64,000 nucleotides of DNA from a virus (IMGVR_UViG_3300028591_000189:7880-71879), one strand, 5' to 3'. Positions 3,741-45,449 are shown, counted from the stretch's first letter. Notes: generated from the sequence alone by a model not told the origin. Numbers and translations are program-made.

Positions 3741-4331
3741 ATGGCAGATGAAGCAAAAGTAACCACCACCGAAGAACTCACAGTAGACCAGCTTAAAGAG
3801 CAGCTTGCACAGGCAAAAGCGGAGAACGCAAAACTCGGCGCAGAAGCGGCGAAGCAGAAGAACCGCATTGATGAACTTTGCTCCAACGAAGGAAAGCTGA
3901 AAAAGGCTCTCCGGGAACGGCAGACAGCAGAGGAACAGGAAGCTGCCGCAAAACAGGAGAAAGAGGAAGCTGAAAAGCTGAGAGTTTCCAACCTGGAAAG
4001 GGAACTCGGAATCATGAAGGCAACCAACCGCTACATGAAACTCGGTTTTGGCGACCAGTCAGAGCAGATGGCAACGCTGGAATACGACCGTGATATGGAT
4101 GCGTGGGCAGATGCCGCAGACAAGCACCTTGTAGCTTATAAGGCACAGCTTGAAGAAGCTATCCGTGCGGAGTATGCCGCAAAGATGCCGACACCTTCCA
4201 GCGGCAATTCTTCTACCGTGGATTACTCAAAACTCATTGCAGATGCGCAGGCATCCGGCGACACACTTACAGTCGCAAAGTACATCCGTGAACAGGCGGA
4301 AGCCAACGGATTCAAAATCCATGAACACTAA
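3741..4331 (+). CDS. Capsid scaffold protein
   Basis: Coiled-coil, E/K/A-rich, immediately upstream of major capsid gene. Confidence 0.8.
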   Translation: MADEAKVTTTEELTVDQLKEQLAQAKAENAKLGAEAAKQKNRIDELCSNEGKLKKALRERQTAEEQEAAAKQEKEEAEKLRVSNLERELGIMKATNRYMKLGFGDQSEQMATLEYDRDMDAWADAADKHLVAYKAQLEEAIRAEYAAKMPTPSSGNSSTVDYSKLIADAQASGDTLTVAKYIREQAEANGFKIHEH

Positions 4332-4356
4332 GTTTTCACACTAAAGGAGAACCACT

Positions 4357-5319
4357 ATGGCAACAGCTACTTCTTTTGCAGTACCTAACTATTCCGGGAT
4401 GCTCTTTGTTAAGGGCAATGACCGTACACCTTTCAGCACTCTTATCGGTGCAAATCCCCTGGTAACTAACCACGTAGAGTTTTCTTGTGGTCAGTTCTGG
4501 CAGGCAAAGACAGGCACACAGCCCGCAATCTCTGAGACTGCTTCCCTGACTGCTCCTGTGGCTACTGTCACGACCCGTGAACAGAAGACCAACGTTACTC
4601 AGATTTTCCAGTATTCCGTAGACGTTTCCTACGGCAAGATGAGCAACATGGGTACTCTGTCCGGCATCAACGTTGCTAACCAGGCCGCTAACCCGCAGGC
4701 TGAACTTGACTTCCAGGTAGCCGCTACTATGGCACAGGCCGCCGCTGACATTGAGTACACCTTCCTTAACGGCGTGTACAACAAGGCCGCTACCGATGCA
4801 CAGGTCAACAAAACTAAGGGCCTGCTTGCCGCAATCGAAACCAACGAAGTTTCCGGCACCACAGGCACAGGCAACGACCAGGTCGTTTCTAGTCTGACAT
4901 GGGATCTGGTGACAGAAGCACTTGCTAAGATTCACAAGCAGGGCGGAGTTATCTCCAACTATGTACTTGGTGTTGATTCCACCGCTATGATCCAGCTTAA
5001 CAAAAACGCAATCGACAACAAAATGACCATCGTCCCGGCATCCCGTGAAATCAACGGCCTTGCGCTGAACACAATCGTAACCCCTCTTGGAACCGTTGCA
5101 CTGGTACTGATGGATACACTTCCGGCTGGCACAGCAGTTATCTTCAACCCTGCTATGATGCACCCCGTTTATCAGCCTGTACCGGGCAAGGGCAACTTCT
5201 TCCTGGAGCCTCTTGCAAAGGTCGGCGCTTCTGAGAAGTATCAGATTTTCGGTCAGCTTGGTCTGGACTTCGGTATGGAATACCTGTCCGCAAAGATCAC
5301 TGGCATCCTTACCGCCTAA
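4357..5319 (+). CDS. Major capsid protein (HK97 fold, DUF5309/SU10-like)
   Basis: 320 aa, strong SD aaggag, biased codon use, TNVTQIF..SVDVS motif, position after scaffold. Confidence 0.85.
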   Translation: MATATSFAVPNYSGMLFVKGNDRTPFSTLIGANPLVTNHVEFSCGQFWQAKTGTQPAISETASLTAPVATVTTREQKTNVTQIFQYSVDVSYGKMSNMGTLSGINVANQAANPQAELDFQVAATMAQAAADIEYTFLNGVYNKAATDAQVNKTKGLLAAIETNEVSGTTGTGNDQVVSSLTWDLVTEALAKIHKQGGVISNYVLGVDSTAMIQLNKNAIDNKMTIVPASREINGLALNTIVTPLGTVALVLMDTLPAGTAVIFNPAMMHPVYQPVPGKGNFFLEPLAKVGASEKYQIFGQLGLDFGMEYLSAKITGILTA

Positions 5320-5678: not shown

Positions 5679-6095
5679 ATGGCAAAGACTAAATATCTGA
5701 ATTTAAAGAACCTTCCGTTTCTTGAACAGGATTTTTGGTATGCCAGGATGAAGGGTCACGAACCCGAAGTTGACAGTGAGGGAAATCTTACTGGCGACGA
5801 TGTACTCACATATGAAAATCCAGTCCACGCTAAAGCAAGAATCGGTTTCACGCAGTATTACGATGCGGACACGGCGTTCACAAAAGGAGTTGTCCATAAC
5901 AGGGCAATTTCCTCGGTGACAAAGTTTCCCATTGATGAATACACAGTCCTTTGGATTGACGTGGAACCCGTTATCAAACAGGACGGAAGTACAGACACGG
6001 AGCCGGATTATTACTGCGTGGCGTATAGACAGGACATTCACAGAAATGTTTGGGCTATAAGAAAGCGTGAAGGATATGAAGGCAATCAAAGTTAA
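5679..6095 (+). CDS. Head closure / neck protein
   Basis: IDEYTVLWID.EP...PDYY motif typical of Clostridia phage neck genes; synteny. Confidence 0.6.
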   Translation: MAKTKYLNLKNLPFLEQDFWYARMKGHEPEVDSEGNLTGDDVLTYENPVHAKARIGFTQYYDADTAFTKGVVHNRAISSVTKFPIDEYTVLWIDVEPVIKQDGSTDTEPDYYCVAYRQDIHRNVWAIRKREGYEGNQS

Positions 6096-6588
6096 TGTCC
6101 TAGACCCTACATCTATTGATGCGGCAGTCAAGGCATTAGAGGACTATAAGAAAAAACTCGAACAACTGCCGGACAAGGTTGCACAGAGAGCGCAAAAAGA
6201 AGGTTTAGAGAGGATGATAAGCGGACTACCGCCTATATCGGATCAGAACGAGCCAGCGCTTTATGGCACAGGGCAGTACGGCAACGTCTACACGATTGAA
6301 GCGGGTGGATGCTTACCATATGTAGAGTTTGGCACGGGCGTTGTCGGACAGGGCGGCGGTTATCCCGAACCCGTATATCTGACCAATGTGGGATGGCAAT
6401 ACGCAAGCGGCCCTCACGTATTTACTACTAAAAAAGGCCGTAAAGGTTGGTTTTGGTTCAGCAATGCGAGAGGACACTTCCTGTTCACGGAAGGTATTGC
6501 CCCAGGTGGGTTTATGGCAAGCACTGTGCGTTATCTGAAAGACAGAATCCCGGAAATAGCAAAAGAGGAATTGAACAGCAATGGTTAA
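6076..6588 (+). CDS. Tail completion protein (HK97 gp10-like)
   Basis: YVEFGTG signature, GW.Y, FM..T C-terminus. Confidence 0.8.
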   Translation: MKAIKVNVLDPTSIDAAVKALEDYKKKLEQLPDKVAQRAQKEGLERMISGLPPISDQNEPALYGTGQYGNVYTIEAGGCLPYVEFGTGVVGQGGGYPEPVYLTNVGWQYASGPHVFTTKKGRKGWFWFSNARGHFLFTEGIAPGGFMASTVRYLKDRIPEIAKEELNSNG

Positions 6589-6962
6589 AGACAGAGTTAA
6601 CCAATACTATACTGAATTGCTTACCTACATGCAGACAGCAACGGACGAATATCCGGCCTATGACATGAGGGGCGGTATGAAGTACACAAATACCCCGGCG
6701 CATTTCCCGTGGATGTATCTGCATCAGATAGACGGTAGCGGCACGGCCTATACACTATCCAACGGCGAAGATGCAATCAACCTTGGCTTCCAGTTGGATA
6801 TATACGAAAAGGTCAGCTTGGGTGCCTGCCGCAACATGGCTAACAAGGCCCGTATGGTTCGTAGACAACGGCTTCCGTGTAACCTACTTCAACCCTATTG
6901 ATAACGTCAACGACAGAAGTATCAATCGTTTCTCCATGAGAGTTACGAAGTTTGAAACATAA
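6581..6962 (+). CDS. Tail terminator protein, split by an apparent frameshift near 6854
   Basis: Frame 1 (6581-6901) reads P.FPWMYL...FQLDIY; the natural-looking C-terminus WFVDNGFRVTYFNPIDNVNDRSINRF continues in another frame to 6962. Confidence 0.65.
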
Positions 6963-26443: not shown

Positions 26444-26472
26444 TTGACAATGAACGTCTACTATGGTAGACT
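26444..26472 (+). promoter_or_regulatory. Sigma70-type promoter (cro direction) overlapped by a TCTAC-N4-GTAGA operator
   Basis: TTGACA-17-TAGACT; palindrome TCTACtatgGTAGA at 26457-26470. Confidence 0.75.
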
Positions 26473-38386: not shown

Positions 38387-38746
38387 GTTGGCATATATCC
38401 AACATTTCTACCTTAGTAAACGCTTGCTATATACGACAGTAGATGTTAAAATAACATAGTAGTTCGGATAAGTAAGAGCCATTGAGCCGGATAATCTGTG
38501 TGGGGATACCATGCAGCTTACTCCGGCTCTTAGCAAAAAAACGTATAACGTAAAAGAACCGCCTGTGCGGGAACACAGAACGGTTCGGCAGGAAATGTTG
38601 GTAAGGAACATAACCTACATGGATTAGTGTACCATCATTCCCTCATTACGGTCAACGGGAAAGGTGGTATTTTTTATGTCTTAGCTAAATGGGTCTTAAT
38701 CATATCGTAACTGACAATTCTGTATTCAATTCATAAGGTGATAAAA

Positions 38747-39595
38747 ATGAGCGTATTAAAGTTAATTGCATCTGATAGTTTTCTCTGCATCAACAAATGT
38801 ATCGCAAAGGCTTTTGGCCTGGATGCGGCGGTCATGATCGCTGAACTTGCGACATGCTACAACTATTGGGAATCACAGGACGGTCTTACTGAGGACGGTA
38901 TGTTTTATGAAACCGTTGAGAGAATGGAAGAAAATACCACTCTGACTAAATATCAGCAGTTAAAGGCTATTGCCGTTCTTGAAGATGCTGGGGTTATCCG
39001 CACCGAGAGAAGGGGCCTTCCGGCAAAGAGATACTTTGCTATCAATGAAGAAAAACTGCTTGAAGTAGTTGACAACAAGAAGTCAAAAAACTGGACAACT
39101 GGAAGTGAAAAAACTGAACAACAAGAGAGTGAGTTTTTTGACGTAAATAAGAATAGAGAAGAAGAAAAAAGAGAGATTAAGAATAGAACTATAAGAGAAA
39201 GTGGTTCGTCTGCGCCGACCACTACCGCCGAAAAAAAGCCTAAGAGAAAAACTTCGCCTTCTGTAACCGATGATAAAGCAACCGAAATGATGGAGCCTAT
39301 GAATATCTCTGAACCACTTAGGGAAAAGGTTCTTGAATGGTTACAATACAAGCGTGAAATCGGCAACACTTACAAGGAAACAGGCTTTAAGTCCCTTCTG
39401 AAACAGGTAGAAAAGGCTGAACAGAAGCATGGTGCATCAGCGGTTATGAATCAGATTGACCTTGCTATGTCAAGATCGTGGCAAGGTATGTACTTAGATA
39501 AAATCGTTTCCAGCAACAATAACAACACCGCAAAGAAGGATAGCTTCTCTAGCGGTGTAGATATGCTCATGAGTGAGGGGTGGTATAATGACTAA
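38747..39595 (+). CDS. Phage replication initiator (wHTH + DnaD-like)
   Basis: F..T...MEE.TTLT.YQQ..AI..L; internal AT-rich direct repeats 39085-39099/39108-39122; W.QYK.E...Y..TG, WQG.Y. Confidence 0.8.
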   Translation: MSVLKLIASDSFLCINKCIAKAFGLDAAVMIAELATCYNYWESQDGLTEDGMFYETVERMEENTTLTKYQQLKAIAVLEDAGVIRTERRGLPAKRYFAINEEKLLEVVDNKKSKNWTTGSEKTEQQESEFFDVNKNREEEKREIKNRTIRESGSSAPTTTAEKKPKRKTSPSVTDDKATEMMEPMNISEPLREKVLEWLQYKREIGNTYKETGFKSLLKQVEKAEQKHGASAVMNQIDLAMSRSWQGMYLDKIVSSNNNNTAKKDSFSSGVDMLMSEGWYND

Positions 39596-40226
39596 AGAAG
39601 AAACAACAAAAGTCGTATTTTACATTAAGGGTGCGTATCCCGGCTATTATCTCAAAGTAAATGCAGATGCGTTCAAGCATCAGATTATGGTGTGGCATGA
39701 TATTCTTAAAAACGAACCTTTTGACCGTGTTATGGCAGGGGTAAAGAGTGCTATCTGCGCCGGAACGAACGGTTTTCCGCCTTCGCTTGATATGGTTATC
39801 GAATACATGCACAGGGCAGAGAACCCTGGAAACCGTTCTGGAATTGATGCTTGGCGGTTAGTGTGCAGGGCAATCAACTCTCCCCGCGACCAAATGAAAG
39901 CTGCGTTCGCTACTCTGCCGGAAACGATTCAGCATGTCTTAGGTTCGCCGGATACTCTGCTTGCATGGGGCAACGTGGATACGGAACACTTTGAAACCGT
40001 GATCCAGTCGAACTTCCTTCGGTCATATGAAGCACAGGTTCGCCGTGAACACATTGAACACAAGATACCTGAGAACCTTCGTATCTCGCTTGACGGGCCG
40101 GAGCCGCCTAAGATCGAAGGCCCTAAGTCCGTTGAGTATGACGATGCTTTTGATTCAACCGAAGTCGAAATGCCTAAGTCCGTATCTGACAGGCTGGCGG
40201 CACTTCGGAAGAAACTTGGACAGTAA
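39588..40226 (+). CDS. Helicase loader/inhibitor (G39P-like)
   Basis: MTKEE...I..AYP...W...L....FPPS; directly after initiator. Confidence 0.75.
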   Translation: MTKEETTKVVFYIKGAYPGYYLKVNADAFKHQIMVWHDILKNEPFDRVMAGVKSAICAGTNGFPPSLDMVIEYMHRAENPGNRSGIDAWRLVCRAINSPRDQMKAAFATLPETIQHVLGSPDTLLAWGNVDTEHFETVIQSNFLRSYEAQVRREHIEHKIPENLRISLDGPEPPKIEGPKSVEYDDAFDSTEVEMPKSVSDRLAALRKKLGQ

Positions 40227-40265
40227 ATTTTATTCGAGATTTTAGGAAAATTTTGTCTAATATGG

Positions 40266-40294
40266 TTGACACGCACAGTGAATTGTAGTAGACT
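40266..40294 (+). promoter_or_regulatory. Promoter for the RAMP locus
   Basis: TTGACA-17-TAGACT; TCTACtaaaGTAGA operator 50 bp downstream (40344-40357). Confidence 0.7.
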
Positions 40295-40371
40295 AAAGAA
40301 GTCGAAGGGCAAGGGGGTACGGCCTAGGACAGTACCCCATAATTCTACTAAAGTAGACGGAAGGAAGGAGA

Positions 40372-40836
40372 ATGGTAAACAACATCGCTTACGAATGGAA
40401 GTTGCCTAGTCTGTACAAAGGCGTAAGCGCAGAGAAGTGCGCAAAGGAAATCGGTGACGTAACTACTCCTAAACAGGTTGTAGATATTGCCCGTGACGAA
40501 AGCACAGAACTTCACAAGTGCTTTGAATGGGACGATGATATTGCCGCCGAGAAGTACAGAGAGGTACAGGCGAAAGAAGTTCTGCGGAGCATTGTTATCA
40601 AGCACGTAGAAGCGCCTAAGAATGAGGGAGAGGAAGAACAGATAACGCACTTCCGGGTGTTTGAGAACGCACCTGAGAAGAATACGTACAAGTCGGTACA
40701 ACTGATCGTTCAGAATCCCGATGAACACGCAAAGCTGATTGCACAGGCCCGTAGAGAATTGGAAGCCTTTAAGAAACGCTATGAGAACATCATGGAACTT
40801 GCGAAGGTCATAGCGGCAATCGAAGAATTTATCTGA
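40372..40836 (+). CDS. Conserved phage protein (ELHKCFEWDD.IAAEKYR motif); candidate accessory protein of the RAMP system
   Basis: SD ggaagga; first gene of locus, directly upstream of array A. Confidence 0.7.
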   Translation: MVNNIAYEWKLPSLYKGVSAEKCAKEIGDVTTPKQVVDIARDESTELHKCFEWDDDIAAEKYREVQAKEVLRSIVIKHVEAPKNEGEEEQITHFRVFENAPEKNTYKSVQLIVQNPDEHAKLIAQARRELEAFKKRYENIMELAKVIAAIEEFI

Positions 40837-40843
40837 ATCAACA

Positions 40844-41433
40844 CGGTACAGACTGTTGAATAGGTGGCAGTAAGCCACATAATTACATAATTACAGTACG
40901 ACACAGTAAATGAGAGAATATTACATTAAACGACACAACAACAAATTACTACCATCTGTTCAGCAGTCCGTACCGATAACACTGACTGTCTAATAGGTGA
41001 AATAAGTCACCTACATAGACCATACGGCATTAAACCAAATTAGACTGCATTACAAAACAGCGGCTAAGAAAAAATTAGAATAAACTACAACAGATTTATT
41101 TCATCTGTTAGGCAGTCAGTAAACATTGACCATCTACCAGGTGGCAGTAGCCACCAAACACCGTTTATCACATGACACAAAATCATAGGTAACAACAAAC
41201 GAGTAAAACAGAAGAAATCACACTACATAACAACATAGTTACTACCATCTGATAGGTGGTCAATGAACAAAGTAACAATCGGTTGTCTTATAGGTGGCAG
41301 AAGTCACCGAAAAGATAATAAAAAACGTTTAAACAGAATCGGTCAACACCTGTAATGACAGTAGAAAAAATTAAACGACAATTAACCAAAGAACAACACA
41401 GGACAGACTACTACCATCTGTAAGGCAACCGAT
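40844..41433 (+). ncRNA. Array A: four stem-flanked units each holding an ANA-NN pentamer tract (putative guide RNAs)
   Basis: Units 40844-40975, 40981-41120, 41125-41264, 41278-41433; conserved arms AGGTGGCAGTA / TACTACCATCT with covarying outer stems; no plus-strand ORF. Confidence 0.8.
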
Positions 41434-41474
41434 AAAATAAATAATTCCACAAAAGAAAAGGAGAAAGAAAAACC

Positions 41475-42116
41475 ATGGCAAAGAAAGACGAAATCATTGA
41501 AATCAAGAAAGTTGACCCTAAGACCGCCATCTTCCACATTGAAGGAACCAGCGCCATCATCTGTAACAAGATGGACAATGTTACAAAGCGTGACCTGACC
41601 GATGAACGCAAGGACAAGGCAAAGGAAGTCAAGAAGCCTAACAAGTGGGAAAAGATCATTACCTCTATCCACTGGAACAACGGCGACCCGGAAACTTTCA
41701 CAGAGGAATCTCTGAAAGAGCAGCTTGCAAACAACGCCCCATGCTTCACAACCTTTGGTTTCAAGAAGGCCATGTGTGATGCGGTTGTCCGTTTCGGCAT
41801 CGACAAGTATTCCACTAAGTTCAAGGCGGCGGTCAGCATGAACAGCAAGAACGGACTTATCCCGTTCAAGTTCTCCGATTACAGATGCAGGGAAGAACTC
41901 ATGTCCCCTAAGAGGGGCGCTCCGATTCTGGTCTACATCAACGAGTTCGGCGGCTGGGAAGCAGATGTAAGCATTACCTACATCGACAGCGTTTACTCCC
42001 TGGAACAGATCGTGAACATCATCAACCTTACAGGCATCGGAATCGGCATCGGCTCCGGCAGAAACGCAGAGTTCGGCAGATTCAAGGTGACTGGCGTAAC
42101 AAAGGTTGGCGAATAA
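41475..42116 (+). CDS. Cas7/RAMP-like protein 1
   Basis: beta1 IFHIEGTSAII, helix TFGFKKAMCDA, FGGWEADVSI, Gly-rich loop GIGIGIGSGR...FGRF. Confidence 0.75.
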   Translation: MAKKDEIIEIKKVDPKTAIFHIEGTSAIICNKMDNVTKRDLTDERKDKAKEVKKPNKWEKIITSIHWNNGDPETFTEESLKEQLANNAPCFTTFGFKKAMCDAVVRFGIDKYSTKFKAAVSMNSKNGLIPFKFSDYRCREELMSPKRGAPILVYINEFGGWEADVSITYIDSVYSLEQIVNIINLTGIGIGIGSGRNAEFGRFKVTGVTKVGE

Positions 42117-42254
42117 GATACATTCGTAACGTCAATTTTTCTACCATAGTAGACAGGGGGTGATAAACGGCAACATCTATAACAGGAGAACCAACTTACA
42201 GCAACGAGAAGAAAAGGTTCGGCTCCGTAGGGTGTTGGTAACAATACGAACTGT

Positions 42255-44210
42255 TACAGAATAGCATAGAATTGATGTGGAAAGGGGTGAGCAAAGGCTA
42301 AGAGAAACGGTGCCCAGGAAAAGCAAAGATTGGCAACGGCAATGTGAAGTTTTGCTAGGGCAAAGCGAAGTATGACAGGGCAATGGCAAAGAAGCGCTAC
42401 GAAAGGCCATGGTTAAGCTAAGAAAAGCAGAGCCACGGAAATGTTTAGTGAGCCAGTGTGAGGGCGATGCGCAGAGCAGTGCTAAGTGGCAAAGGATTAG
42501 TTCTGATGCGTAAGGTGCTGGCATAGCCTAGAAGCGTACAACACTGTTATGGATTAGCTTGGATTAGTTACGGACTAGCCCTGACTAGTTAAGTTAAGGC
42601 TCTGATATGAACTGTGCAGGAAATGTGAAGAACAGCATGGGCATAGGAATGAAACGTGAAGGCTAAGTCCTGATAGCTTCGGAAATGATACGCCAAGTCT
42701 TGGCACTGGTTCGCCATGAAAAGGAAATGCAAAGTTTCGTTGCGGAAAAGGTTAGCCATGAACGGCAAAGGCACTGACTAGATAGGCTACGCATTGGAAT
42801 TGAACAGAACCGTCCCGCAAGGGAAAAGCATGGAGAACAACAGTAATGGCTTAGTTTTGTTCCGGCTGTAAAGGCGGTGATTTGAATAGCGTAGGCAGGG
42901 GCTTGAATAGCGTTGGTTATGACAAGAAGCGTAGTGGCTGAGTTCTGCGTGGTGACGAAATGCTGTGGAAAAGCACTGTGCCGGAAGAGCAAAGAATCGT
43001 ACTGTGCCGGAAAAGTATAGCACGGTTTCGGAATAGCAAAGCATAGCCGGACAGAGCAATGGTAATGACTAGAGATGTGACGTAGTGCAGTGGAATTGCA
43101 AAGTTGAGCGAAGAACCGTTGAGGAAATGCAAAGACGGGAAAAGCTATGGCGTTGCTGGGAAAAGATTGGCAAGGGTGTTGTGAGGACAGGATATGCTAT
43201 GGCATTGTTCAGCCGAGTTTCGGTGTCGAAGTGATGCGACCTGTAAAGGCGTTGATTTGACATGATTTGTTTTGGCATTGCAAAGTTCAGATTCGCAAAG
43301 GAAAAGCAGGGAAAAGTTTGCACTGTAAAGGCAGAGCAAGGAGAGGTTTTGCGAAGGCAGAGGAACGCTGTGTATCGGCATTGGGCGGCTAGATAGCGTA
43401 AAGGCATGGTCAAGCGGTGAAACGCAAAGGCGAAGCAATGATCGTGAAGAAACGATAGCTTGGTAAAGGCATCGTGGAACGGTGTTTAGGCTAGGAAAGG
43501 TATTGTTCTGTCAAGGCAAAGCCAAACGATGTAATGGCAGAGAGTAGCAAGGCGGCGGCATTGATAGTGCGGTAATGATAGCGCTGATATGGAGTTGCAT
43601 AGAATAGTCCGCAATGGAGTAGCTAAGTTCAGAAGCGTAGGGCTTCGGCAAAGTAAAGGCTGTGATGCTTCGGAAGTGAATTGCGAAGAAATGGCGAAGT
43701 AAACCGGGGCCGTGTTCAGGAATGGCTCAGAGTTGATTCGCAAAGGCATAGACCAGTCATGAGTTGCTAAGGCATTGAGTAGATAAGCAATGGCAAAGCG
43801 AAGCATTGACATGTTAAGGCGTTGCGAAGATATGCTCCGCAAAGGAATCGTGATGCTCAGTTGAGGAAAAGAAAAGAGCCGTGCGCAAGGGAAATGCAAA
43901 GCAAAGTGACGTTGCGGAGTAGTTTTGTATCGGTGGTGCTATCAGATGCGAAGTGATGGAATGGTGATGCCAGGAGAAGAACAGAGGGGGTGATGGAAAC
44001 GAGTGGAAGAGTAAAGGCATAGAAGCGAGCAGTCATGGAAATGAGTAGAACAGTTTAGTCGTGGAAATGAATGAGTAGAAGCGGTCAGCTACGGAAAAGC
44101 TAAGATTGGTATAGGAATCGTAAAGTTCAGTAGCGGAAATGTTCAGTACGGTCATGGAAAGGAATGGAAAGGCCCTGAACGGCAAAGGCGGCGAATGGCC
44201 CCGTGCTGAT
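42255..44210 (+). repeat. Array B: ~1.95 kb non-coding tract of G-terminated pentamers punctuated by GG-ending hexamers
   Basis: e.g. 43731: agttg attcg caaagg catag accag tcatg agttg ctaagg cattg agtag ataag caatgg; no plus-strand ORF of 60 aa or more. Confidence 0.85.
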
Positions 44211-44282
44211 TACACAAGCAAAGGCAACTGTTAACCAGTGGTTCCAAAAATATTTTTTCAAGAAAGAAAGGAAAGAAAAACA

Positions 44283-45023
44283 ATGGCACTTGATATTTTT
44301 AGCAAAAACGCAATCGACAGAAGAATCAAAATCTCCTTCCTGGAGCCTGCACTTGGCACGGCCCCTAATGACAAAGAGGTTTACAGCAACTATATCGCAA
44401 GCAAGGCCCCGGACGCACAGGGAATCGAAGAAGAGATTGCCGCCATCGGTGTAGATGGTGTGGCAGAGCAGGGCATGACAGTATTCCCCCGTATCAACTT
44501 CGACAAAGAGCGCCCCGGTTTCTGGCCTTATCAGATTCGTGGATTCTTCAAGTCAGCACAGCAGGCACTCAACGATATGGTTCCGAACAAGGAAGAGCGT
44601 AAGAAGAAGGGTTCCGGCTACCTGTCCACATACAAGCGCAAGATCGACACGCTGGTTTTTGTCAAGACCATCGGCGCAAGATGGACAAAGTACAAGACTG
44701 CCGGAACGGATAAGCAGCTTATTGAGATTCACCTTCCCGAAGGTGGCGAGATCACAGCCTGTGAACGCCCTCTGAGAGCACAGACCATGCAGGGCGAACG
44801 TGTTGCACTGGCGAAGAGCGAAGCGGTTCCCGAAGGCTCCTGGATGGAGTTTGATGTAAGGATTATCGATCCCAACCTGGAAGATTACCTTGGCGAGTGG
44901 CTCGAATTTGGAGCCTACAACGGCCTTGGACAGTGGCGCAACTCCGGCAAGGGCACATTCGTTTACTGGATGTACGATATGGACGGCAACCTTGTCAAGA
45001 CCAATGCCGAAGATGAAGAATGA
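44283..45023 (+). CDS. Cas7/Csm3-type RAMP-like protein 2
   Basis: beta1 IKISFLEPALGT, PYQIRGFFKSA, SEAVPEGSWMEFDV, Gly-rich loop GLGQWRNSGKGTF. Confidence 0.78.
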   Translation: MALDIFSKNAIDRRIKISFLEPALGTAPNDKEVYSNYIASKAPDAQGIEEEIAAIGVDGVAEQGMTVFPRINFDKERPGFWPYQIRGFFKSAQQALNDMVPNKEERKKKGSGYLSTYKRKIDTLVFVKTIGARWTKYKTAGTDKQLIEIHLPEGGEITACERPLRAQTMQGERVALAKSEAVPEGSWMEFDVRIIDPNLEDYLGEWLEFGAYNGLGQWRNSGKGTFVYWMYDMDGNLVKTNAEDEE

Positions 45024-45041
45024 GAAAGAAGGTGACAGGAT

Positions 45042-45449
45042 ATGTCAATGAACTGTTTCACGGGCATCGGCAACTTAGTTGCTGACCCGGAAGTAAGGTA
45101 CACAAATGACGGTCTGTGTATCGCAAGCTACCGTATAGCAATCAGCAGGGACTTTAGCAAGGACAACGAAAGCGACTTCCTTAATTGCAAGGCTTTCGGC
45201 AAGTCCGGCGAGTTTGCAGAGAAGTATCTGCGGAAGGGCATGAAAATCGGCATCAAGGGACGGGTTCAGACGGGAAGCTACACGAACAAGGAAGGCAACA
45301 AGGTCTACACTACCGACATTATTGTAGAGAACCATTACTTCTGCGAGAGGGCAGAAAGCGGCGGCAATCGTGGCGGCGGTCACGAGAAGTCCGCAGACGA
45401 CTTCATGAACATCCCGGACGGGATTGACGAAGAACTTCCGTTTACCTAA
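45042..45449 (+). CDS. ssb: Single-stranded DNA-binding protein
   Basis: GNLVADPEVRYT, GRVQTGSY.NKEG, C-terminal DEELPF. Confidence 0.96.
   Translation: MSMNCFTGIGNLVADPEVRYTNDGLCIASYRIAISRDFSKDNESDFLNCKAFGKSGEFAEKYLRKGMKIGIKGRVQTGSYTNKEGNKVYTTDIIVENHYFCERAESGGNRGGGHEKSADDFMNIPDGIDEELPFT

Follow-up and report, generated by a model that had tools for sequence, protein, structure and literature searches.

Two RAMP genes and two pentamer-periodic arrays in a phage replication module: a probable tandem of VIPR-type systems

What do two Cas7-like genes, each adjoining a long non-coding array that repeats about every five nucleotides (nt), do among the replication genes of a phage? The question is raised by positions 40,266 to 45,023 of IMGVR_UViG_3300028591_000189:7880-71879, a stretch of 64,000 nt (the window, to which all coordinates without a locus number refer) whose source record is a single virus genome of 71,879 bp (72 kb). 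An earlier reading of the same sequence – the original prediction – had proposed a non-CRISPR RNA-guided system and had pointed to a report of phage RAMPs guided by GGY/NN pentamer RNAs under the name 'VIPR'. That report exists (bioRxiv 10.64898/2026.04.26.720920), and in its light the locus very probably holds two VIPR-type systems in tandem, each combining a RAMP with a pentamer guide RNA directed against the double-stranded DNA (dsDNA) of competitors. Since VIPR is known from preprints of 2026, and since a further preprint (10.64898/2026.10.21.760802) already lists non-canonical trinucleotides, the locus does not constitute a new category; its first module is a divergent member, or a variant, of a kind already described.

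In VIPR, characterised for GGY/NN guides in phages of Proteobacteria and described in 2026, the phage RAMP (Vipr) polymerises along a vrRNA of 9-16 YNNGG units, each of which takes up one protomer; it sequesters GGY and presents NN, so that dsDNA is paired with every third base skipped and competing elements are silenced (10.64898/2026.04.26.720920). In the Vipr of phage SUSP1, D177 and W178 hold the two guanines – W178 stacking on the second – and R179 holds the pyrimidine (10.64898/2026.04.26.720920).

The locus considered here consists of two modules, the first comprising gene0, array A and gene1 and the second comprising array B and gene2. Their parts are as follows:

40372-40836, + strand: gene0, a 154-aa accessory protein in the position of the VIPR vap gene (phrog_15946, E 1e-21)
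40837-41474, + strand: array A, 638 nt, non-coding, with four stem-closed A-H-A/NN tracts
40844-40873 and 40946-40975, + strand: arms of array A unit 1, with A-N-A/NN tract 40893-40947 (fold -39.8 kcal/mol, z -7.3)
40981-41008 and 41093-41120, + strand: arms of unit 2, with guide tract 41012-41096 of 17 pentamers, for which a target was found
41124-41149 and 41240-41265, + strand: arms of unit 3 (stem and tract), with tract 41170-41239
41278-41305 and 41406-41433, + strand: arms of unit 4 (stem and tract), with tract 41358-41407
41475-42116, + strand: gene1, a 213-aa Vipr-like RAMP with G-loop GIGIGSGR..FGRF
42117-44282, + strand: array B, 2,166 nt, non-coding, about 400 NNNNG units, periodic core about 42270-44200
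44283-45023, + strand: gene2, a 246-aa RAMP with G-loop GLGQWRNSGKGTF

Array A, its code and its targets

Array A is built of four units, in each of which complementary arms of 26-30 nt surround a loop of 72-100 nt that carries an in-phase run of 10-17 A-N-A-N-N pentamers. The tract score of 43.2 was reached in none of 2000 shuffles (3.8 +/- 4.1), while the lag-5 signal of the array as a whole is weak because the stems interrupt the tracts. The outer stem parts of the four units differ in sequence and keep their complementarity. Fold z-scores run from -7.1 to -8.5 on the + strand, as against -3.6 to -6.3 on the - strand, and in the window and its relatives together, 95 distinct stems contain 319 G-U pairs on the + strand compared with 66 A-C mismatches, the latter being the would-be G-U pairs were the - strand the RNA. 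Judged by these pairing statistics, array A is a predicted RNA-level structure of the + strand.

The 5' arms of units 1, 3 and 4 (40860-40880, 41141-41156 and 41297-41312) can alternatively form a short hairpin, GGTGGC-AGWA-GYCACC, which resembles GGTGG..GTAGCCAC of the SUSP1 vrRNA tail (locus L001, about 29168-29150, - strand) and may be a handle or a switch.

How widely this arrangement occurs was surveyed in 80 loci of IMG/VR that encode a homologue of gene1 (49-57% identity). The small gene, which the original prediction had called conserved, has a homologue in 79 of them, directly upstream of gene1 in 78 and downstream in one; none of the 80 carries gene2. All 48 distinct gene0–gene1 spacers (271-1330 nt) are A-rich (37-49%) and score higher at lag 5 than at lag 6, so that the neighbourhood survey proposed with the prediction returned periodic arrays in every distinct gene1 spacer, as well as in 79 of 80 loci surveyed for gene2. 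The relatives' tracts are very clean ACANN runs between inverted repeats: the logo of their 1,730 units reads A (0.89), H, A (0.95), N, N, and the median tract has 11 units. The hosts of prophages carrying gene1 are gut Clostridia – Faecalimonas, Blautia, other Lachnospiraceae and Oscillospiraceae.

The closest comparison comes from an ENA contig (L179) whose gene1 is 91% identical and in which both modules stand in tandem again, just as the prediction had paired them. Unit 2 of array A is 100% identical there, units 3 and 4 have identical stems around unrelated loops, and unit 1 has been replaced entirely; relatives' contigs in public runs likewise join the arms of unit 1 across another loop. 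These computational comparisons present the content of array A as hypervariable and apparently guide-like within a fixed frame.

The target rule tested was the published one for VIPR, in which NN pairs are read and one target base is skipped (skip 1). For the exact scan of IMG/VR, nine consecutive NN pairs were used, which amounts to 18 specified bases with, at skip 1, one wildcard between pairs. The nine-unit guide of unit 2 found 95 stretches at skip 1, as against one at skip 0 and two at skip 2; the nine-unit patterns of units 1, 3 and 4, which also served as controls, found 0, 0 and 0 exact matches in IMG/VR. In the 80 of the 95 sites that were fetched (57 distinct sequences), the match continues beyond the scanned part to 12-16 of the 17 units, with 14 units in 38 sites, 15 in 14 and 16 in one, and across the 57 distinct sites the entropy is 0.15 bit at the NN positions compared with 1.15 bit at the skipped positions. 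The skipped bases fall on the third codon (wobble) positions of the peptide INFYAFNSNGNRG, on the coding strand of a gene for an Enc34/Gp2.5-type single-stranded-DNA-binding protein (SSB; PF10991, E 1e-73 to 1e-77; phrog_112). By tblastn, the phage itself has no PF10991-type gene (best E 1.3), and among named phages the nearest to carry such an SSB gene are Ca. Heliusvirales from human faeces that belong to Lachnospiraceae, Oscillospiraceae and Ruminococcus hosts.

The original prediction had the variable positions read a target, for example in a competing phage or for self-regulation. Of these options the first is supported and the second is not: the unit 2 guide has no own-genome site above chance, and units 1-4 at skips 0-2 gave chance-level scores only against the own genome and 160 related loci, the perfect skip-3 matches in that scan being the arrays themselves.

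The rule extends beyond the window. When 134 guide tracts from the gene0–gene1 arrays of other phages were matched, with eight units exact, against a local set of 3.7 Mb, skip 1 gave 903 matches from 21 of the 134 guides, compared with 2 at skip 0, 5 at skip 2 and 0-4 for shuffles of unit order. In three annotated Heliusvirales phages the best sites lie in the genes for the DNA polymerase (nine guides), the exonuclease (three) and the SSB (three), and the best matches reach 23/24, 26/28 and 19/20. Because the unit 2 scan had pre-enriched this local set for target phages, the test speaks for convergence on that phage group and for the specificity of the rule rather than for the full target range. 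Taking both scans together, the NN positions of array A are read as matching targets in competing phages by the 1-nt-skip rule, an assignment that comes from sequence matching.

From these patterns and the published mechanism we infer a course of events that runs from transcription and processing through filament assembly and DNA binding to silencing, and that includes the whole mechanism of module 2. Module 1 would be transcribed from the + strand, and each of the four long stems would delimit one guide and possibly mark a processing site. One gene1 protomer would then cover each A-H-A trinucleotide and expose the next two bases, and the exposed NN dinucleotides would pair with the target while every third target base is skipped. 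Unit 2 would be aimed at a conserved stretch of the Enc34/Gp2.5-type SSB gene in other phages, with the presumed effect that their replication module is silenced. Module 2 would contribute a second, more distant RAMP with a G-anchored array, most likely on the same principle.

If this is so, a large family of gut Clostridia phages would use the gapped NNx code with A-H-A, a changed G-loop and another RNA scaffold. It would also give concrete form to phage-against-phage interactions in the human and animal gut, with guides converging on polymerase, exonuclease and SSB genes of Ca. Heliusvirales, and it places a 45-bp target site and a 70-75-nt guide in hand as a testable pair.

The proteins and their genomic setting

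Neither gene1 nor gene2 has a Pfam family, and searches of Pfam and of PDB sequences with the two proteins returned nothing useful; a tblastn search of the GenBank phage collection with gene1 gave no match. AlphaFold models built from alignments of homologues (predicted local distance difference test, pLDDT, 80.5 for gene1 and 78.3 for gene2) were more informative: the top Foldseek ranks were exclusively Csm3/Cas7 chains of type III and type VII effectors (E 7e-5 and 5e-8, respectively), and the best BFVD match of gene2 carries the name 'Cas system-associated RAMP superfamily protein'. According to these models both proteins are predicted Cas7/Csm3-type RAMP folds, in line with what had been proposed from their sequence layout. 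The glycine-rich C-terminal loops singled out at the same time are present and invariant among homologues, and it is in this G-loop only that gene1 and gene2 resemble each other in sequence. Both belong to large families, with at least 1758 protein clusters for gene1 and at least 6223 for gene2.

For comparison with VIPR, the SUSP1 locus was located (L001) and a canonical Vipr profile was built. Aligned to it by hhalign, gene1 scores 93% probability (E 3e-7) over its last 58 residues only. At the positions of D-W-R in SUSP1, the G-loop has S-G-R in gene1 and Q-W-R in gene2; by analogy, S-G-R would go with the GG-free repeat of array A, and Q-W-R with the G anchor kept in array B. As for the accessory proteins, the neighbours of gene0 in a protein atlas are virus-only clusters, one of which is auto-named 'DUF4494 domain-containing protein' (score 0.97), and clustering of the open reading frames (ORFs) next to gene2 gave no family with recognisable function.

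The genes of both modules all lie on the + strand, within the replication module, with the following neighbours and candidate control sites:

38738-39595, + strand: O-type initiator gene, upstream neighbour
39573-40226, + strand: G39P-like helicase loader gene, upstream neighbour
40266-40294, + strand: promoter-like TTGACA-17-TAGACT upstream of module 1, 10 of 12 consensus positions, a consensus match only
40344-40357, no strand assigned: operator-like palindrome TCTACTAAAGTAGA (TCTAC-N4-GTAGA) before gene0, motif counted in the window
42140-42153, no strand assigned: second operator-like palindrome TCTACCATAGTAGA at the head of array B, same motif count
45042-45449, + strand: gene for an OB-fold SSB, downstream neighbour

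The order is the one originally described: promoter, small gene, array A, first RAMP, operator, array B, second RAMP. No terminator-like site was found on the + strand between 40100 and 45600. The palindrome TCTAC-N4-GTAGA (at most one mismatch) occurs 16 times in the window, compared with 1.27 copies expected and none of 100 shuffles reaching 16, and probably serves as operator for a phage regulator to which both guide modules also answer. Its copies span positions 1323-57945, examples being those at 26457, 40344, 42140, 52907 and 53376.

A class 1 CRISPR-Cas effector locus was considered as well and is ruled out. As claimed earlier for the window, the locus has no repeat-spacer array and no cas genes; across the 72-kb genome no regularly spaced 12-mers occur and Cas1 was not found (as a control, the search picked up Cas1 in 7 of 14 well-known genomes), and the genes on either side of the locus belong to replication. 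A scan of 40000-45200 against Rfam (E up to 1) gave no match, hammerhead ribozymes between units included.

Array B and the weighing of other readings

Array B raises a harder question than array A, namely whether it works in the same way. Its spectrum peaks at a period of 5.19 nt with a power of 29.8, while 500 shuffles reach no more than 3.86 and 129 windows from elsewhere in the genome no more than 3.47, and its autocorrelation peaks at lags 5, 10/11, 16, 21, 26, 31 and on – the signature of four or five 5-nt steps followed by one 6-nt step. Segmentation yields 419 units, 398 of them ending in G, with steps of 5 nt (302), 6 nt (92) and 4 nt (21); each block, of 21 nt (n=27) or 26 nt (n=25), is closed by a 6-mer ending in GG, according to the grammar GG / MAWWG / NNNNG / MNNNG / (WNNNG) / YNANGG. 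Since the steps are mixed, the period is about 5.2 nt and not exactly 5, so that the 5-nt period originally described stands for the tracts of array A and gives way in array B to a mean of about 5.2 nt with 21/26-nt blocks. With about 84 blocks over 2.2 kb, array B is the longest array among the 82 loci examined. It is 64% purine with the G anchor on the gene strand, and it has no codon periodicity (lag 3 = 0.237, below the expected 0.271) and, on the + strand, only short ORFs, none of note.

The partnership of gene2 with such an array is regular. Among 80 loci with gene2 homologues, 79 adjoin an array rich in G and A, 375-1700 nt long, in which the 5/21/26 lags recur, and the remaining locus is a fragment that ends at the gene; the array may lie upstream or downstream of gene2 and is always on its strand. 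Between array B and the 1,471-nt array of L179 no similarity is detectable, and their periodic statistics are the same. Arrays with 21/26-nt blocks are a widespread architecture of putative RNA arrays.

Three further observations concern gene2-type loci. In L118 there are two gene2 homologues (4001-4612 and 6055-6351), and behind each of them lies a separate periodic array with a G anchor (4526-5125 and 6351-6875). In L123 (1851-2350 and 2353-2805) a distant gene0-like ORF, of 29% identity, stands beside a 500-nt tract with 40% G and a lag-5 autocorrelation of 0.38, which may be a third, GG-rich kind of array. Many gene2 loci also show, some 100 nt beyond the main array, a further stretch with a weaker 5-nt period, which lacks the 21/26 lags and has a balanced composition of about A 0.27, C 0.23, G 0.25 and T 0.25 (e.g. 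L101:5401-5675, L125:5176-5475 and L138:5026-5250); this stretch could be coding or could be an element of another sort.

A pairing code for array B was sought with 23-24 rules, which covered word positions 1-4, 2-4, 1-3, 3-4, 2-3 and 1-2 at skips 0-3, in a small local database made up of the own genome, VIPR loci and target-phage loci. Positions 2-4 at skip 1 gave a z of 3.2 for array B that was gone once windows were lengthened, and a rule adding one target base after each GG, run as one rule, was null.

Even so, a VIPR-type system is the likeliest identity of gene2 and array B, an assignment by analogy that draws on the predicted fold and on the G-loop, where Q-W-R answers to the D-W-R of SUSP1. 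Array B may belong with the NNNNG or 'staggered' arrays already published, going by their description in the VIPR preprint.

Several results weigh against taking the locus as two VIPR-type systems. For module 2, none of the 24 pairing rules rose above shuffles, whether applied to the units of the window or to 10,011 units from 67 arrays; gene2 reaches only 14% probability against the canonical Vipr profile, in the G-loop alone; and array B itself, with its 2.2 kb, mean period of 5.2 nt and block grammar, is unlike the characterised vrRNAs of about 100 nt. The sole signal from RNA libraries is one contig of 534 nt from a sheep-gut metatranscriptome, 99% alike, which covers 43964-44497, the last part of array B and the start of gene2, and may be contaminating DNA; the six RNA runs held 5-11% of the sampled words, most of their contigs come from relatives and lie over genes, and the parts left uncovered are uninformative. 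For module 1, units 1, 3 and 4 have no target in the scans made, gene0 has no similarity to vap1 of SUSP1, the SUSP1 vrRNA has a 5' hairpin and a 3' pseudoknot tail where array A has a closing stem of 26-30 bp, and the enrichment of the local set makes the family test partly circular. Finally, in three named Heliusvirales phages that were checked the unit 2 site matches only 26-28 of 34 positions (partial sites at L280:3372-3422, L281:3372-3422 and L282:3372-3422). This is partly because a serine codon family has switched from AGY to TCN, a synonymous change that, on our codon reading, breaks two guide positions; a change from Arg to Lys/Asn also breaks the site in two of the three. Where the skipped bases of a guide lie on wobble positions, such a synonymous switch could offer the target a way to escape.

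It is conceivable, with a probability of perhaps a quarter, that module 2 is a RAMP–RNA system with a grammar of its own, in which some 84 GG-closed blocks of 4-5 G-anchored pentamers form a non-NNx code or one giant multi-guide or decoy RNA; if so, the constant part of the repeat would co-evolve freely with the G-loop, and phages would stack several orthogonal guide systems. That one block corresponds to one turn of a five-subunit filament, or that the mean period of 5.2 nt has to do with the 10.4-bp repeat of DNA, is speculation. Rather unlikely is a RAMP-based mechanism outside VIPR altogether, through 21/26-nt mini-guides with another code, one long ribonucleoprotein filament, a decoy or sponge RNA, or RNA targeting. 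It would accommodate the block grammar, the 21- or 26-nt super-period common to the whole gene2 family, the empty rule search and the likeness of gene2 to canonical Vipr in the G-loop only, and satellites reportedly employ solo vrRNAs as redirecting decoys. It sits less well with the RAMP fold, the W-R pair of the G-loop and the G anchor, all of which parallel canonical Vipr, with the NNNNG, YNNNG and 'staggered' arrays named in the VIPR preprint, of which array B may be one, and with a hypervariable content in a fixed frame that looks guide-like; the null target search, moreover, covered a small local database.

Far less probable is that array B acts as DNA, as a helix-phased protein-binding or structural tract of the replication module. 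The arithmetic is suggestive, 5.2 nt being half of the 10.4-bp helical repeat and 21 nt two turns, the 5.19-nt period stays coherent across 2.2 kb, its peaks falling at multiples of 5.2, the array lies between the initiator and helicase-loader genes and the SSB gene, and the one RNA-library contig that reaches into it may be DNA. Yet the array is always found beside the gene for a Cas7-like RNA-binding protein and on its strand, it has a strong strand asymmetry (the purine content and G anchor given above), and its content turns over fully between close relatives while the frame stays, although the sites of an origin or of a binding array should persist; array A of the sister module, furthermore, has the marks of an RNA-level structure with guide–target matches.

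Scarcely credible, finally, is that the unit 2–SSB match is a by-product of shared ancestry or composition. In favour of this are the A-richness of array A, the Asn-rich peptide encoded by the matching stretch, and the 95 matches, which all fall in one gene family and make one event. Against it, the NN pairs alone match and A-H-A has no counterpart in the target, which ordinary homology cannot yield, skips 0 and 2 gave one and two matches against 95, the extension past the nine scanned units is exact for 4-6 more, and 21 independent guides match other genes of the same phage group at skip 1 only.

Comparison with known systems

Two VIPR-type systems in tandem, the reading preferred here, can be set beside four groups of known systems. 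The most distant are the Cas7/Csm3 backbones of type III and type VII CRISPR-Cas, with which gene1 and gene2 share the RRM core, the thumb and the glycine-rich loop; the step is 6 nt in those effectors and 5 nt here, their spacers are acquired whereas the repeats here are hard-wired in tandem, and this locus has no CRISPR array, Cas1 or other cas genes.

Closer are the arrays described from a genomic language model (10.64898/2026.10.21.760802), which fall into 21 clusters; their fixed trinucleotides are of other kinds (GAC, CAC, WGT, TGH), and Vipr-like folds are encoded next to them. Like array A, they have a 5-nt period, a trinucleotide other than GGY, about 10 repeats and a Vipr-like fold nearby. 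TGH/NN is the reverse complement of DCA/NN, so that it may be the family of array A read on the other strand, as far as the motif text alone can be compared. That preprint gives motifs and folds only; the present analysis has in addition the RNA strand, the closing stems, the 1-nt-skip test and named natural targets.

For module 2, the relevant comparison is with the NNNGG, YNNNG and NNNNG repeats and the 'staggered' arrays offset by 1 nt that the VIPR preprint also names (10.64898/2026.04.26.720920), a source whose PSI-BLAST survey of Vipr is given there with 2,664 hits. Array B resembles these types in its G anchor, with NNNNG units and a YNNNGG closing unit, and its register shift of 1 nt per 4-5 units fits the '1 nt overlapping positions' in the legend of Fig. 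S18. Unlike VIPR vrRNAs, array B has no 3' tails.

Closest of all is type II VIPR, represented by SUSP1 and a P. fulva prophage (10.64898/2026.04.26.720920, 10.64898/2026.04.26.720927). With module 1 it has in common a minimal phage locus in which a RAMP and a small accessory gene accompany non-coding arrays, pentamers with three constrained and two free positions at about 9-16 units per guide, targets in competing mobile elements with no self-targeting, and, in gene1, the C-terminal strand–helix–G-loop; the NNx reading of targets with the skipped base on the codon wobble is likewise shared, by sequence matching only on our side. The differences are equally definite. As originally pointed out, the constant motifs depart from GGY/NN (YNNGG) in both arrays: array A has A-H-A/NN, its constant trinucleotide being A-H-A in place of G-G-Y, and array B has NNNNG with a YNNNGG closing unit. 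The guanine-binding D-W-R of SUSP1 corresponds to S-G-R in gene1, the accessory protein has no sequence relation to its counterpart, the hosts here are gut Clostridia, and module 1 is known computationally alone. Because the same NNx code would thus go with a different repeat, a different G-loop and a different scaffold, the code appears separable from the chemistry of the repeat, which bears on the engineering of orthogonal programmable DNA binders and places module 1 beside type II VIPR as a divergent member or variant of the same kind.

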